A DNA stretch of 5,354 bases from a virus (taxonomy: Duplodnaviria > Heunggongvirae > Uroviricota > Caudoviricetes), in IMG/VR virus record IMGVR_UViG_2778261639_000001, positions 1-5,354 of that record; one strand, given 5' to 3'. The notes beneath the pieces are model-generated. The model was not told the origin of the DNA. It saw nothing but the letters and a program-made list of their open reading frames with translations, and made no database searches. The position numbers and the translations under genes were made by a program. Of the stretch, positions 1-5,354 are shown in pieces (the first letter of the stretch is position 1; each line of letters starts with the position of its first letter).

Positions 1-184
1 TAACATTGGCTTACAACTCATAACAAAAGCAATTCAATGCCGTCAAGAGGTTACAGGCTAAAAAAACTCTATTACATTGCAGTCAGCATGTTTACTACAC
101 AAATACAATTCAGAGCATAAAAACTACTCGGCGGCAGGTTATTGAGACTCATCAATGACATGTAAAAAACGCCCATTATTGGTG

Positions 185-216
185 TCAAGTTTCCCCAAAG
201 TTATTCAAAAAGTCAA
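185..216 (-). promoter_or_regulatory. Putative late promoter pR' / qut region downstream of Q
   Basis: Minus strand reads TTGACT (plus 211-216), a 17-nt spacer, then GAAACT (plus 188-193). The first ~60 nt after the Q stop match my recollection of lambda up to the -35 hexamer; the -10 and initial transcribed region differ. The -10 is a poor match to consensus, so exact promoter elements are uncertain. Confidence 0.4.
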
Positions 217-258
217 TATTATGCCGTTAATATGTTGCCATCCGTGGCAATCATGGCG

Positions 259-882
259 CTAACGTGTGATCGCATTCAAAATGTTGTCTGCGATTGACTC
301 TTCCTTGTGGCATTGCACAACCAGAGCGTCATACAGCGGCTTAACAGTGCGTGACCAGGTGGGTTGGGTAAGGTTTGGGATTAGCATCGTCACAGCGCGA
401 TATGCGGCGCTTGCTGGCATTCTTGAATAACCGACGCCTTTACATCTTCCGCACTCTTTCTCAGCAACTATCCCCCACTGCTCTGTTTTGGCTATATCAA
501 CCGCACGGCCTGTACCGTGGCAATCTCTGCATCTTGCGCCCGGCGTAGCGGCACTACGGCAATAATCCGCATAAGCGAATGTTGCGAGCACTTGCAGTAC
601 CTTTGCCTTAGTATTTCCTTCGAGCTTTGCCACACCACGGTATTTCCCCGATACCTTGTGTGCAAATTGCATCAGATAGTTGATAGCCTTTTGTTTGTCG
701 TTCTGGCTGAGTTCATGCTTACCGCAGAATGCAGCCATACCGAATCCGGCCTGTGATTGTGCCATCCCCATAGCAGCCATCACATCAGTACCGGAAAGAG
801 AGTCAGAAGCCGTGGCCCGTGGTGAGTCGCTCATCATCGGGCTTTTTGGCGAATGAAATTTAGCTACGCTTTCGAGTCTCAT
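259..882 (-). CDS. Q: Late-gene antiterminator Q (lambda type)
   Basis: 207-aa product is near-identical over its full length to lambda Q as I recall it (MRLESVAKFHSPKSPMMSDSPRATASDSLSG...). ATG at 880-882 overlaps the ninH TGA stop (ATGA); TAG stop at 259-261. Confidence 0.95.
   Translation of the reverse strand: MRLESVAKFHSPKSPMMSDSPRATASDSLSGTDVMAAMGMAQSQAGFGMAAFCGKHELSQNDKQKAINYLMQFAHKVSGKYRGVAKLEGNTKAKVLQVLATFAYADYCRSAATPGARCRDCHGTGRAVDIAKTEQWGIVAEKECGRCKGVGYSRMPASAAYRAVTMLIPNLTQPTWSRTVKPLYDALVVQCHKEESIADNILNAITR
582..614 (+). promoter_or_regulatory. paQ-like CII-dependent antisense promoter inside Q
   Basis: Plus strand has TTGC-GAGCAC-TTGC (582-595), a perfect TTGC-N6-TTGC CII-binding motif, then 13 nt, then TAGTAT (609-614) followed by TTCC. 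This is the same geometry as lambda pRE as I recall it (TTGCGTTTGTTTGC-13nt-AAGTATTTCC). It lies antisense within the Q coding region, as lambda paQ does. Confidence 0.55.
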
Positions 883-1067
883 CGTCTTCCCCTCTTGCCC
901 TGTTTGACCATCAGGACGCCGTTAACTATTACATGACGCTCGCCTTTGCTGTCTCGGTTGTACTTGAGCACTGTTCCTCTTGCGCAGGAAAGCATCCTTG
1001 CCACTTCGGTCTGATTGCCTCGTGTATGGATAAGAAGCTCTGGTATCGTTTGAATTGTGGCGTTCAT
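879..1067 (-). CDS. ninH: NinH (small HTH protein)
   Basis: 62-aa product shares the core GNQTEVAR..RGTV.KY....G..H.IVN.VLMV with lambda NinH as recalled. ATG at 1065-1067 overlaps the rusA TGA stop (ATGA). Confidence 0.85.
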   Translation of the reverse strand: MNATIQTIPELLIHTRGNQTEVARMLSCARGTVLKYNRDSKGERHVIVNGVLMVKQGKRGRR

Positions 1068-1426
1068 GCGTTCTCCAGTTCGGTGATTTTTATTCCAAGC
1101 CTTCCGCCTGGTACTTTCACACCACGAATTACGCGAATGTCATCGAATTGCTCGTCGTCTTCCGCAAATCCGGCGTGGATAAGGGAGTCGAGTAAACCTT
1201 TCAGGATGTTATCGAGGTCGCGGCGGCGGGAGTCTGGAACGTCTGCGATGACTTTGATGCGGAGTCGTGATTTGGTGAAAATATCTAACTTGAGTTGGTG
1301 GATGATTTGCTGAACGTCTTTTCGGTATTTCTGGCCTTTATCGCTGATGTAGTATTGGCTTCCCCGTCTTCGCCAGTAGGTATTCAACGACGGCGGGTAT
1401 GGAAGCACAAACTGATATTCGTTCAT
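1064..1426 (-). CDS. rusA: Holliday junction resolvase RusA
   Basis: 120-aa product has RusA hallmarks (LP.PPS.N.Y, RRRDLDN, GGRL) and the same length as E. coli RusA. ATG at 1424-1426 overlaps the upstream TGA stop (ATGA). Confidence 0.9.
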   Translation of the reverse strand: MNEYQFVLPYPPSLNTYWRRRGSQYYISDKGQKYRKDVQQIIHQLKLDIFTKSRLRIKVIADVPDSRRRDLDNILKGLLDSLIHAGFAEDDEQFDDIRVIRGVKVPGGRLGIKITELENA

Positions 1427-1713
1427 GACTTAATCTTCCCCTCCTTCAGCAGTATCGCCTGCGTCCTGATCACGCCTTCGAGGTGGTAAAGTCTGGCATC
1501 TTTGTTGTCGATAATCATTGTGCGTCGGTCGATTTCATCGTGACACGCGCTACAAGCCCATGCGCCGATCAGGTCGTCAGGCTTCATTCCCGTTCCGCAA
1601 ATTCCAGCCATCCGGTAATGTGCCAGAACTGTAGTTTCAGGATTGCCATTGCATACGCCGTAAATACGTACCTGGCATTCTCTGCCGCGCGCTTCTTTGC
1701 GTAGGTTAGCCAT
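1423..1713 (-). CDS. ybcO: YbcO-like DUF1364 protein (putative zinc-binding nuclease)
   Basis: 96-aa product resembles DLP12 YbcO as recalled (RGRECQVR..GVCNGNPET.VLAH.R..G.CGTG.KP.DLI...CS.CHDEIDRR), with conserved Cys/His ligands. ATG at 1711-1713 overlaps the upstream TAA stop (TAATG). Confidence 0.75.
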   Translation of the reverse strand: MANLRKEARGRECQVRIYGVCNGNPETTVLAHYRMAGICGTGMKPDDLIGAWACSACHDEIDRRTMIIDNKDARLYHLEGVIRTQAILLKEGKIKS

Positions 1714-1982
1714 TATGGTTCACTCCAGTAATTCTCAATTGCAGCAGCCATTCTCTGCATCCACTCAGCCAGCTTTAACGCAGCTTCTCTTTCAGAACCA
1801 CATTTAGGGAAATCCTTCATTTCCATGCTGGCCTTATATGTTCTGAATGCCAGGTCTCCGGTAATAACCAACTCCTGATCAAGCACCGAGCGTTTATTCC
1901 GGTGTTGAACGTAATAGACAGATTCAGTCCGCATTTCTTCTCTGTCTTTTTTGAAGGAAATAAGCTCAGAGAAATCACTCAT
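1713..1982 (-). CDS. Hypothetical protein (89 aa), no family assigned
   Basis: ORF embedded in the operon: ATG at 1980-1982 lies 2 nt after the ninF stop, and its TAA overlaps the start of the next gene. I could not assign a family from memory. Confidence 0.6.
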   Translation of the reverse strand: MSDFSELISFKKDREEMRTESVYYVQHRNKRSVLDQELVITGDLAFRTYKASMEMKDFPKCGSEREAALKLAEWMQRMAAAIENYWSEP

Positions 1983-2145
1983 CGTCTTCTTCCTCGTACA
2001 TTGAGCTATTCGGATCGCTCATCAGTTCTGCGCAGCAGTGCTCACATACGTGAACTTCCAGCACATGCAGCTTCTGACCGCAGTTAGCGCACGTTAAAGC
2101 TCGCTCGACGCTTTCTTGTTCGTAACTTCGATTTTGGTCAATCAC
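1975..2145 (-). CDS. ninF: NinF (Cys-rich small protein)
   Basis: Product matches lambda NinF core as recalled ([45 protein letters not shown]). There is no ATG in frame. I place the start at GTG 2143-2145, which overlaps the ninE TGA stop (GTGA) and has GAGGA 7 nt upstream; the ORF track's 2187 start is also a GTG but has no such support. Confidence 0.75.
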
Positions 2146-2324
2146 CTTGTTTTCCTCGCACGATTTCTTAGCCACCGGATATCCCACAGGTGAGCCGTGT
2201 AATTGAAGGTTTTTACGTCAGATTCTTTTGGGATTGGCTTGCGTTTATTTCTGTAGCGTTTCGTTGGAAGGTATTTGCAGTTTTCGCAGATGATGTCGGT
2301 GAAACTTCGTCGCTGTCGCCTCAT
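2142..2324 (-). CDS. ninE: NinE
   Basis: Product from the internal ATG (2322-2324) is [52 protein letters not shown]..., which matches lambda NinE as recalled. AGGAGG lies 6 nt upstream, and the ATG overlaps the methyltransferase TGA stop. The ORF-track start at 2414 is a TTG inside the methyltransferase gene and is rejected. Confidence 0.85.
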
Positions 2325-2848
2325 GCCGCCCTCCTGACGCCCTGCCCGATCGCCATCAATGCCGCTTTGGATACGGTAGTAAACATCCGTCGAGGACTGA
2401 TGAACGGTCGCCAAATCAGCAGCATGGAGCCTTTACTGTTTCCCTTCTTCTCCAGCCCTGTCGATGGTTCGATAAAATTAATCCGTCCATCAGTGATAAT
2501 GCGAACTTCGTCAACACTCTCCAGAGCCTTGCTGAACCATCCGACAGACATATCCTCTGGCACAAGCATCACTACCGTCTGTCGCTGTTGTATGCACTGC
2601 TCAGCGGCTTTTTCCACCCACGGCCTGATATTGCTGTACGGTGGGTTATTCCAGATTGCACCGTGGCTTATCCACTCAGAATTGAGTGCGTCGTCGGCCT
2701 CAGTTAGCCAGTGAGCGCACAGAGCATTTTTGTCGCTCGCAGCTGAATCCAGCCAGAATCCAAACTCAATATCCAGCGCATCAAAAAGCCAAAGCGGCGT
2801 TTGCCAGCAGTCCTTGTCGTGTGCTGGTGTATTTGATTTGATAGTCAT
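2321..2848 (-). CDS. Phage-type DNA N6-adenine methyltransferase (orphan MTase)
   Basis: 175-aa product has the N-terminal DCWQTP motif and the NPPY catalytic motif typical of the phage Dam N6-adenine MTase family. ATG at 2846-2848 overlaps the ninB TGA stop (ATGA). No restriction endonuclease partner is present in the window. Confidence 0.8.
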
Positions 2849-3291
2849 GCAGCCCTACCTTTTCGTTGTGACCATTCATACTCTCGCCGGGAGTCATCAC
2901 TCCACCGCACGTTGCGCTCTGAGCCGAACCAAAACATGATTTCGATAAGCTCAGTCATGCTGGCCTTTCGCATTTTGCTGGTACGCACGCCAAGCATGAC
3001 AACGCCACCATCGATACCAGGCACACTTCGTTGCTCCAGTTTTTTGGTCTTAAGCCACAGGGCAGTGAACAGGTCTTTCCAGTCCTCCGGCGCAAGTCTC
3101 TGTCCATGCCAAAGCACCTGACGTGATACGTCCTGCAATAACGCCCACATAAGGCGGTTTTGAGGATTGCTCCGCTTTGGTTCTTTAATGTGGACTTCGT
3201 GAGGTGACTTGTCGTCGATCGGAAGTGAGAGTATTGCGTCTATGGCGTTGTTTCTGATTGCTTCGTTGCGAAGCATGTATATTTGCTTCAT
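2845..3291 (-). CDS. ninB: NinB (Orf-family recombination mediator)
   Basis: Product resembles lambda NinB as recalled (...NAI.A......P.....RS..QNR..WA.L.DVSRQV.WHG..L....WK..FTA......MRK....ELIE....FG.ER.V.WSD......EW..R.G.RAA). I take the ATG at 3289-3291 as the start, with GAGGTG 5 nt upstream; the track's 3297 start is a GTG two codons upstream. Confidence 0.85.
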   Translation of the reverse strand: MKQIYMLRNEAIRNNAIDAILSLPIDDKSPHEVHIKEPKRSNPQNRLMWALLQDVSRQVLWHGQRLAPEDWKDLFTALWLKTKKLEQRSVPGIDGGVVMLGVRTSKMRKASMTELIEIMFWFGSERNVRWSDDSRREYEWSQRKGRAA

Positions 3292-3298
3292 TGTCACC

Positions 3299-3505
3299 TC
3301 AACTCACAAAACGCCACGCCATTTTTGCTACAGCGACAGGCGCAACACCGATAATCACCCACAGGAAAATGCTACCGAAAAGCACACCAACCAGGTCTTT
3401 ACCTTCGCCTACCAGCCGGACAAAACTGCTGGCAACCACAATGAACGTCGCCACCATCCACATAGCACCGAGAATCCTCAATGCAGAAAAAATCAACTCA
3501 ACCAC
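3299..3505 (-). CDS. Hypothetical small membrane protein (68 aa, two predicted TM helices)
   Basis: Start is GTG at 3503-3505, preceded by a strong SD (GGGGGAGAG, 6-nt spacer); an internal ATG at 3461-3463 is an alternative. Two hydrophobic stretches (LIFSALRILGAMWMVATFIVVASSFV and LVGVLFGSIFLWVIIGVAPVAVA). TGA stop is 7 nt before the ninB ATG. No family recognised, and the overlapping plus-strand ORFs are low-complexity. Confidence 0.45.
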   Translation of the reverse strand: MVELIFSALRILGAMWMVATFIVVASSFVRLVGEGKDLVGVLFGSIFLWVIIGVAPVAVAKMAWRFVS

Positions 3506-3520
3506 GATTTACTCTCCCCC

Positions 3521-3552
3521 AAATAAAAAGGCCTGCGATTACCAGCAGGCCT
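3521..3552 (-). terminator. tR2-like rho-independent terminator between ren and the nin region
   Basis: Minus strand reads AGGCCTGC-TGGTAATC-GCAGGCCT, a perfect 8-bp stem (6 GC pairs) with an 8-nt loop, followed by TTTTTATTT. It sits 26 nt downstream of the ren stop, the same position as lambda tR2 as I recall it. Confidence 0.55.
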
Positions 3553-3577
3553 GTTATTAGCTCAGTGATGTAGATGG

Positions 3578-3868
3578 TCATCTTTTAACTCCATATACCG
3601 CCAATACCCGTTTCATCGCGGCACTCTGGCGACACTCCTTAAAAATTAGGTTCGTGCTCATCTTTCCTTCCCGTTCTTCCTTGGTAGCAAACCGGTAATA
3701 CACCGTTCGCCAGACCTTACCTTCGATAACCAGAAGACCTGCCCGTGCCATTTTAGCCGCGGCCTGATTTATGCTGGTTACTGTTGCGCCTGTTAGCGCG
3801 GCAACGTCCGGCGCACAGAAGCTATTATGCGTCCCCAGGTAATGAATAATTGCCTCTTTGCCCGTCAT
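3578..3868 (-). CDS. ren: Ren
   Basis: 96-aa product is near-identical to lambda Ren as recalled (MTGKEAIIHYLGTHNSFCAPDVAALTGATVTSINQAAAKMARAG...). ATG at 3866-3868 overlaps the P TGA stop (ATGA). Confidence 0.9.
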   Translation of the reverse strand: MTGKEAIIHYLGTHNSFCAPDVAALTGATVTSINQAAAKMARAGLLVIEGKVWRTVYYRFATKEEREGKMSTNLIFKECRQSAAMKRVLAVYGVKR

Positions 3869-4566
3869 ACACTTGCTCCTTTCAGTCCGAACTTAGCTTT
3901 GAGTTCTGCGATCTTCGCCAGAGCCTGTGCACGATTTAGAGGTCTACCGCCCATGACAGGAAGTTGTTTTACTGGTTCAGGGATCGCCTCACCACGGTTA
4001 ATTCTCGCAGTCATATGGACAAGCTCATCTGCGGCCTTACGGCGTAATTCCGCATCAGTAAGCGCATTGGCCCGCATGTTCTGATACAGGTTGGTAACCA
4101 GCCAGTAGTGCGCGTTTGATTTCCACGGATAAGACTCCGCATCCGGATACAGGCCTCGCTTCCGGCAATACTCGTAAACCATATCAACCAGCTCGCTGAC
4201 GTTTGGCAGTCCGGCGATAACGGATGCTTCTTCCCGGCACCATGCAACAAACTGCCCGGGTGATGGCAGGAATGGTCGATTCTGCCGACGGGCTACGCGC
4301 ATTCCTGCGTTAACCTGTTCCATTGTGGTGATCCCGTTTTCCCGGAAAGCCAGAACCCACTGGCGGCGGATTTCGTTCAGTTCGTTCTGGTCACGGTTAG
4401 CCAGGCTCGCCGGGAAAGTTGCCAGTAACTGGCTGAACACACCGTTGATGATCTGCGCTACCTGTTGTACCTGCGGCTTTTCGTCGTACTGTTCCGGCAT
4501 GTTGTTGGCGATCCGACGCATCTGCTCACGGTCAAAGTTAACCATCTGTGCGGCGATGTTTTTCAT
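3865..4566 (-). CDS. P: Replication protein P (DnaB helicase loader)
   Basis: 233-aa product is near-identical to lambda P as recalled (MKNIAAQMVNFDREQMRRIANNMPEQYDEKPQVQQVAQIINGVFSQLLATFPASLANRDQNELNEIRRQW...). ATG at 4564-4566 overlaps the O TGA stop (ATGA). Confidence 0.95.
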   Translation of the reverse strand: MKNIAAQMVNFDREQMRRIANNMPEQYDEKPQVQQVAQIINGVFSQLLATFPASLANRDQNELNEIRRQWVLAFRENGITTMEQVNAGMRVARRQNRPFLPSPGQFVAWCREEASVIAGLPNVSELVDMVYEYCRKRGLYPDAESYPWKSNAHYWLVTNLYQNMRANALTDAELRRKAADELVHMTARINRGEAIPEPVKQLPVMGGRPLNRAQALAKIAELKAKFGLKGASV

Positions 4567-5277
4567 AAATCCACCCCGTAAATCCAGTCAGTGTTTGTCA
4601 GGTCGAGTTTTGGTTTGCTGGCTGTCACGCCTGCCTGTTGCTTGTTACGGTTGATTTCGAGCTGGGTCCACTTGTCGCGGAGTTTGGCCGGACTCAGCAC
4701 GTTACCGGACCAGAAGTTGTCCTGGCAGGCCCAGCGGAAAAGCACACACATATCGCGGTGGTTACGTCCGTCACGTTCACGCATCAGGCGGATATCGTTA
4801 GCCCACCCTGCAAAATTCGGTTTTCTGGCTGATGGTGCGATGGTCTTCACCATGTCAAACATCCACTCTGCGGCGGTCAGGTCTTCTGCTGTTCCCCACT
4901 TGCTGCCGCTCTGAATTGCAGCATCCGGTTTAACCACAGAAAGATCGTTTTCTGGCTGGTCAGAGGATTCGCCAGAATTCTCGGACGAATAATCTTTTCT
5001 TTTTTCTTTTGTAATAGTGTCTTTTGTGTCCCCCTGTTTTGAGGGATAGCAATCCCCTAATTTGAGGGATGTTTTATCCCTCGTTTTAGGGGATTTTCCC
5101 TCGTTTTGAGGGATGTCCCTCATTTTAGGGGAACCTCCCTCGTTTTGAGGGATGCACCATTCTGAGATGTTTTTATTTGGTCCAAACATGCCGCCTTGCT
5201 GCTTGATAATATTCATTCTGACGAGTTCTAACTTGGCTTCATTGCACCGTTTGACAGGTAACTTTGTAATCTCGCTA
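4563..5277 (-). pseudogene. O: Replication initiator O, 3' portion; 5' part separated by an IS insertion
   Basis: Minus-strand frame encodes ...SEITKLPVKRCNEAKLELVRMNIIKQQGGMFGPNKNISEWC...DNFWSGNVLSPAKLRDKWTQLEINRNKQQAGVTASKPKLDLTNTDWIYGVDL, matching lambda O from about residue 76 onward as recalled. Homology stops at 5277, where IS sequence begins. The frame stays open into the IS but encodes a hydrophobic, non-O peptide. The ORF-track start at 5216 is only an internal Met. Confidence 0.85.
5029..5153. repeat. ori-lambda iterons (six O-binding repeats) within the O coding region
   Basis: Six ~17-nt palindromic repeats with consensus TCCCTCGTTTTGAGGGA start at plus 5029, 5053, 5077, 5097, 5116 and 5136. 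They are flanked at 4986-5028 by an AT-rich stretch (AATAATCTTTTCTTTTTTCTTTTGTAATAGTG) that fits the DNA-unwinding element. Lambda has four iterons as I recall. Confidence 0.85.
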
Positions 5278-5354
5278 TGAACCGCCCCGGGAATCCTGGA
5301 GACTAAACTCCCTGAGAAAGAGGTAAACAGAATGACTAAAAATACTCGTTTTTC
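5278..5354 (+). mobile_element. Left end of IS629/IS1203-like insertion sequence (IS3 family), truncated by the window edge
   Basis: TGAACCGCCCCGGGAATCCTGGAGACTAAACTCCCTGAGAAAGAGGTAAACAGAATGACTAAAAATACTCG matches the left inverted repeat and orfA start of IS629-type elements as I recall them. It begins abruptly where O homology ends. Confidence 0.8.
5332..5354 (+). CDS. IS3-family transposase OrfA, N-terminal fragment only
   Basis: ATG at 5332-5334 is preceded by AAGAGG and encodes MTKNTRF..., the recalled N-terminus of IS629/IS1203 OrfA. The CDS continues beyond the window. Confidence 0.7.

Follow-up and report, generated by a model that had tools for sequence, protein, structure and literature searches.

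An IS629-type element in the replication gene O of a lambdoid prophage of Escherichia coli

Zahn and Blattner, and Wickner and Zahn, are said to have located origin binding in the N-terminal part of the bacteriophage λ replication protein O. The λ origin (ori-λ) has four iterons; O dimers bound to these iterons form the O-some, which recruits P-DnaB, and even where O and P are provided in trans, replication still requires, in cis, that transcription initiated at pR pass through the origin (PMC3985674). Small-scale genome change in enterohaemorrhagic E. coli is driven mainly by the insertion sequence IS629. Published work describes this element as having no sequence-specific target and distinguishes three sub-types that are 4–5% apart (Rump et al.; PMC3271280). 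IS629 is also known from within an antiterminated phage operon, in the stx2::IS629 allele of the O157:H7 strain FRIK1275, where the insertion did not abolish transcription of the downstream phage genes (PMC7430833). Alleles of O that are interrupted by IS629-type elements are already present in public closed genomes, those of the O157:H7 strains F8798, AR-0430 and F6294 and of Z1323HEC0393, in which PGAP annotates O as two pseudogene pieces and the element lies at CTA, at the same nucleotide position as the one described here. The present insertion is thus an ordinary one of an already known kind, with a known IS, a known gene and a site already annotated as a pseudogene elsewhere.

The prophage segment and the junction within O

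The stretch of DNA analyzed (the window, 5354 bp) is the whole of contig NLVG01000123.1 from the E. coli draft assembly GCA_002510355.1; a search of the literature found no paper naming that assembly. The minus strand of the window is the early right region of a lambdoid prophage (Table 1). It resembles the λ O/ori-λ region in its order cII-O-P-ren-nin-Q, in the N-terminal Phage_rep_O domain of its O protein, in the iterons that lie inside O, and in the λ-type P gene that follows them. It differs from λ in that there are six iteron-like units rather than four (PMC3985674), which matches an extra PQNEG-SPK peptide repeat in the O protein, and in that O is interrupted.

Table 1. Features of the window (nucleotide positions; the strand is left empty where none applies)
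Feature	Position	Strand	Remarks
Q antiterminator, λ-type	259-882	-	
Further genes of the minus strand		-	ninB, Dam-type methyltransferase, ninE, ninF, DUF1364/YbcO gene, rusA, ninH
ren	3578-3868	-	
P replication gene	3865-4566	-	Intact, directly downstream of O; PF06992
O, 3' part	4563-5277	-	Third base of codon 75, codons 76-312 and stop; identical to O of Z1323CEC0005
Longest remaining ORF in the O frame	4563-5216	-	Starts at Met96, 217 aa; lacks most of Phage_rep_O
Origin iterons within O	5030-5154		Six iteron-like units of 17-19 nt, all intact
CTA target triplet	5275-5277		From flank comparison; one copy visible in the window
Left end of IS629-type element	5278-5354	+	First 77 of about 1310 nt; E 1e-31; 0/77 mismatches to the SLK172 copy
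Left terminal inverted repeat	5278-5302	+	TGAACCGCCCCGGGAATCCTGGAGA; 23/25 positions match the right repeat of full copies
Ribosome-binding site and start of orfA	5320-5354	+	GAGG at 5320-5323; first seven codons of orfA from ATG at 5332 (MTKNTRF)

Positions 1–5277 of the window are 100% identical to NZ_CP148474.1 (strain Z1323CEC0005), in which O is intact, and also to the prophage of Z1323CEC0006; both strains are chicken isolates from South Korea. The prophage of SLK172, a human faecal isolate from Beijing, is likewise 100% identical to this stretch except for a 67-bp gap in the iteron region. Its O gene is annotated as frameshifted, and the absence of the 67 bp could be a true iteron deletion or an assembly error. 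The remnant of O in the window is 99.6% identical to genes called "replication protein O" in phages BP-4795 and P27 and in Stx phages.

The initial annotation, made from the letters of the window, had O homology running on the minus strand as far as 5277 and the junction falling inside an O codon at about Leu75, and it proposed comparison with intact lambdoid O genes. The O gene of Z1323CEC0005 (939 bp, 312 aa) is uninterrupted at this site, and its 100% match to the window ends exactly at 5277. In the alignment with NZ_CP148474.1 the sequences diverge after ...AATCTCGCTA; both are identical up to ...GTAATCTCGCTA, after which the intact gene reads AGTTGAGAATCGG and the window reads TGAACCGCCCCGGGAATCC. 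The empty site of the intact prophage is TCGCTA/AGTTGAG (the slash marks the junction), and the window reads TCGCTA/TGAACCGCCCC at this point. On the coding strand of the intact gene the same site reads GAT TCT CAA CTT AGC GAG, or D-S-Q-L75-S76-E followed by ITK; the break lies inside codon 75, of which only the third base of CTT is left in the window, and the CTA triplet spans codons 75 and 76. Translation across the junction reproduces the read-through peptide that had been proposed, EKRVFLVILFTSFSGSLVSRIPGAVH/SEITK (...FLVILFTSFSGSLVSRIPGAVH/SEITK), and both the boundary of O homology and the codon assigned to it were placed correctly.

The contig stops 77 nt into the element, so that the window includes neither the right IS end, nor the duplicated target, nor O codons 1–75. 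Among draft genomes that share this IS end, the contig or scaffold ends 74–77 nt into the element in 43 of 65 contig-end cases, a clustering that is the signature of a short-read assembler and its assembly k-mer. The contig appears to have ended because such an assembler could not resolve a multi-copy repeat, and not because the IS is itself truncated; a contig break at a repeat carries no information about truncation in either direction. The element thus accounts for the position of the contig end. Because an IS part of exactly 77 nt at a contig end is also a typical k-mer length, it might be suspected that the junction is artefactual, a chimera made by the assembler at the contig end, and that the real genome has no IS beside O. 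This is extremely improbable, since the break coincides both with the exact start of the IS terminal repeat and with a triplet that is occupied by the same IS family in closed long-read genomes; a random misjoin would not give both coincidences, and a de Bruijn contig requires reads that span the junction. A 33-mer that covers the junction had no match in the genome, metagenome and viral contig collections searched. We are confident that an IS629-type copy was inserted at the CTA of O codons 75/76 in a lambdoid prophage, with its transposase gene pointing against O. Copy-out/paste-in transposition by an OrfAB DDE transposase would have put the ∼1310-bp element at this triplet.

The insertion element

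From 5278 onward the initial annotation had recognized an IS3-family terminal repeat, a ribosome-binding site and the start of orfA, and had suggested an IS629-type element. Each of these parts is present: the left inverted repeat (IRL) begins with TG, and it is followed by GAGG and by the ATG of an open reading frame that begins MTKNTRF. A search of E. coli records matched the 77 nt to IS3-family elements in 5528 of them (E = 1e-31), far beyond chance. Of 5426 complete E. coli genomes, 3485 (64%) contain the 77-nt end, at 22,243 places in all, every one of them annotated as an IS3-family transposase gene. Members of the IS3 family have 5'-TG...CA-3' termini within imperfect repeats of ∼25 bp, and a pair of overlapping ORFs, orfA with an HTH and orfB with a DDE/rve core, that a -1 programmed frameshift joins. 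The left end in the window opens with TG and is identical to the IRL of full copies. The repeat start TGAACCGCCCC, the GAGG and MTKNTRF are all shared with IS629 and its isoforms IS1203 and IS3411.

The remainder of the element can be pictured from full copies that begin with these same 77 nt. They are 1310 bp long, have orfA and orfB joined by a programmed frameshift, encode HTH and rve domains, and are flanked by 3-bp target duplications. One such copy in SLK172, a strain with 13 copies, occupies positions 1601–2910 of the locus extracted from it (L009); it encodes a 108-aa OrfA with an HTH_Tnp_1 domain and the same start as in the window, and an overlapping OrfB with HTH_21 and the rve DDE core, and PGAP labels it an IS3 family transposase with programmed frameshift. 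Clean 3-bp duplications were found at 14 of 32 unique IS629-type insertions with both flanks readable.

The extracted copies fall into three sequence types that are 52–69 nt (4–5%) apart, namely the O157 type, which PGAP calls "IS3-like element IS1203 family", the type found in Z1323HEC0393 and Z1323PEC0008, and the SLK172 type, which is that of the window. Copies of the SLK172 type are 95.4–95.8% identical to those that depositors call IS629 (in phage BP-4795 and Stx phage records), and 94.7–95.3% identical to the two other types (61–69 of 1310 nt different, about 5%). ISfinder treats elements with at least 95% nucleotide identity as isoforms. Judged by sequence identity, the window's subtype should therefore sit at the border of this rule relative to the other IS629-type types. 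The distances among the three types agree with those among the sub-types of Rump et al., and "IS629-type" is therefore an apt name for the element.

The exact 77-nt variant in the window is a minority type, found at 100% identity (at least 99%) in 228 of the 5528 records. Many large plasmids carry this variant in or beside the relaxase gene nikB, a location that suggests a plasmid-borne reservoir for the window's IS subtype.

The presence of IS629 had also been taken as a hint of an O157-lineage host. This idea does not hold up, since the IS end is present in nearly two-thirds of the complete genomes, the O157:H7 copies examined have two mismatches to the window in 77 nt (those of the SLK172 type have none), and the chicken and human isolates with the identical prophage carry no O157:H7 label. 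The exact 32-nt left end of IS629 also turned up at numerous scaffold ends in an assembly that is labelled as the alphaproteobacterium Martelella alba (loci L015, L018, L024, L037, L054 and others), as well as in metagenome-assembled genomes of Lachnospiraceae, Clostridia and Planococcaceae and in Asaia platycodi; these occurrences reflect either contamination or transfer far outside the Enterobacteriaceae.

Consequences for replication and transcription

The Pfam domain Phage_rep_O (PF04492) covers residues 22–115 of intact O (122 bits), and the remnant in the window matches profile positions 57–95 only (34.5 bits, against a cut-off of 28.7). The initial annotation had the insertion separating the N-terminal, iteron-binding domain from the rest of O; the break is instead at about profile position 56 of 95, in the middle of Phage_rep_O, so that the domain itself is cut. 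In a model with the full IS inserted, the open stretch of the O frame reaches only 30 codons back from Ser76 and contains no ATG, GTG or TTG, which rules out an in-frame start within the IS that would give an O(76–312) fusion protein. Because the IS offers no start codon to rescue the downstream part, full-length O should not be made by this gene, and at best a fragment beginning at Met96, without most of the origin-binding domain, would be produced.

Lacking a full-length O, the prophage would be unable to initiate replication by itself, and judging from its sequence it could start at its own origin only if a resident prophage of the same O/iteron specificity supplied O in trans. Such help is conceivable, as the O allele is common, with 1767 empty targets in 1331 genomes and up to four in any one genome, and complementation between prophages has been documented in O157 Sakai (PMC2669165). 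The insertion might then be silent for replication, as it might also be if the Met96 fragment were active. We think this improbable, however, because the origin needs pR transcription in cis as well (PMC3985674), which is now 1.3 kb further off, and because the Met96 fragment is missing about three quarters of the conserved Phage_rep_O domain.

Transcription from pR would have to cross 1.3 kb of untranslated IS before it reached the origin, P, the nin genes and Q, and the transposase gene of the IS is antisense to it. Neither the junction nor a full IS copy gave any promoter or terminator signal above chance when scanned, and the pR strand of the IS showed no convincing intrinsic terminator; an Rfam scan of the window likewise gave nothing above chance. 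The lack of a convincing terminator on this strand, together with the read-through of IS629 in the stx2::IS629 allele, suggests that N-antiterminated polymerase probably reads through the IS to P, nin and Q. The two cases are alike in that an IS629 lies within an antiterminated phage operon; they differ in that the FRIK1275 insertion is in the late, Q-dependent operon and in a non-essential gene, whereas here a gene essential for replication is hit.

A prophage that replicates while it is trapped in the chromosome kills its host cell, a phenomenon called "replicative killing" (PMC3349717), and loss of O may for this reason benefit the host. The state of O thus matters for judging prophage induction, amplification of neighbouring DNA and killing of the host.

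Other insertions at the same triplet

If the window contains a simple insertion, the right IS end ...CCCGGGGCGGTTCA, as in full IS copies, would be followed by CTAAGTTGAGAATCGGTGATTC (CTAAGTTGAGAATCGG) and then by the first 225 bp of O. The statement of the initial annotation that the IS splits O is sound to the extent that the O frame is destroyed inside the Leu75 codon; the presence of the O N-terminus on the far side of the element was assumed, as the contig ends before that point. A search of complete genomes for both junctions found eight with an IS at the O CTA triplet. Four of these (F8798, AR-0430, Z1323HEC0393 and F6294) have both junctions and the CTA duplication. The other four have one junction, with one flank deleted or rearranged: Z1323PEC0008 keeps the C-side of O, which adjoins unrelated DNA, and EC-107 and the O145:H28 strains RM12761 and RM13516 keep the N-side, and in these three a deletion that reaches P or enters it has removed most of O together with the origin.

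That half of the occupied genomes retain a single junction, and that the far side of the IS is outside the window, raises the question of whether the IS here marks a rearrangement or an adjacent deletion, in which case the O N-terminus, cII and the immunity region would not lie beyond it and the prophage would be a truncated remnant. We regard this as a real but unlikely alternative, because the other half have both junctions with a clean CTA duplication, the closest relatives of the window prophage have a complete cII-O region, and the 88-aa N-terminal chimeric product predicted for a simple insertion is present in public data, though it is not tied to GCA_002510355.1. A simple insertion remains the preferred reading. 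The four alleles with both junctions differ from that of the window in IS subtype and in having different immunity, nin and Q regions.

The CTA triplet of O is occupied in both orientations and by three IS subtypes (loci L001, L002, L006, L007, L008, L129 and L130). The transposase gene points against O in F8798, AR-0430, Z1323HEC0393, EC-107 and the window, and along O in F6294, Z1323PEC0008 and the O145:H28 strains. The occupied prophages differ in their immunity and nin regions, and the CTA duplication is identical wherever both junctions survive. Proteins in which O(1–75) runs into one or the other IS end give a further view of such alleles; ten were predicted by combining two O alleles with the IS end variants observed at both IS ends, and eight of the ten were found in a public protein collection, on 40 contigs. 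Uniform insertion would be expected to give about 0.0014 occupied sites (from 22,243 IS places, 0.33 targets per genome and genomes of ∼5 Mb), an estimate that is generous to chance in that it takes every IS copy as an independent event.

Two explanations of this recurrence have to be weighed, real choice of the target and the spread of old alleles among prophages by recombination. Insertions in opposite orientations cannot share one event, and the different subtypes would need gene conversion of the whole element; several independent insertions are therefore the simplest reading. On balance we slightly favour the view that the CTA in codons 75/76 is a true, nucleotide-precise hot spot for IS629-type elements, hit independently in O157:H7, O145:H28, O80:H26 and other strains and in two O alleles. 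IS629 has been described as lacking a sequence-specific target (PMC3271280), and we found no target consensus among 14 sites with clean 3-bp duplications from diverse genomes. Targeting in the style of IS911, in which the target resembles the IS ends, was rejected: when IRL and IRR were aligned without gaps to the 117 bp around the site, their best matches were equalled in 1315–1962 of 2000 shuffles. The only local features near the triplet are a palindrome with 6-bp arms five bases away (AGAATC-GGT-GATTCT) and the iterons about 120 bp away. If target choice is real, some local feature would direct the IS3-family transposase to this site, candidates being the palindrome and DNA structure or replication activity near the iterons.

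A confirmed hot spot would offer a defined, testable system in which to examine target choice by IS629. It would further reveal a repeated route by which lambdoid prophages, including those that encode Stx, lose replication, and repeated knock-out of this kind would amount to a built-in route of prophage domestication.

Short O proteins marked "partial" in protein clusters were considered as additional IS junctions and rejected, as they are simply cut off by contig edges within the iteron region. IS629-type insertions were also seen elsewhere in cII-O (loci L010–L013). These are in 2013C-4830, with a duplication of GTG, in SJ7, inside cII and with a duplication of AAT, and in OK1 and a second copy in RM12761, both without duplication. 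The cII-O region as a whole is often hit by IS629-type elements.
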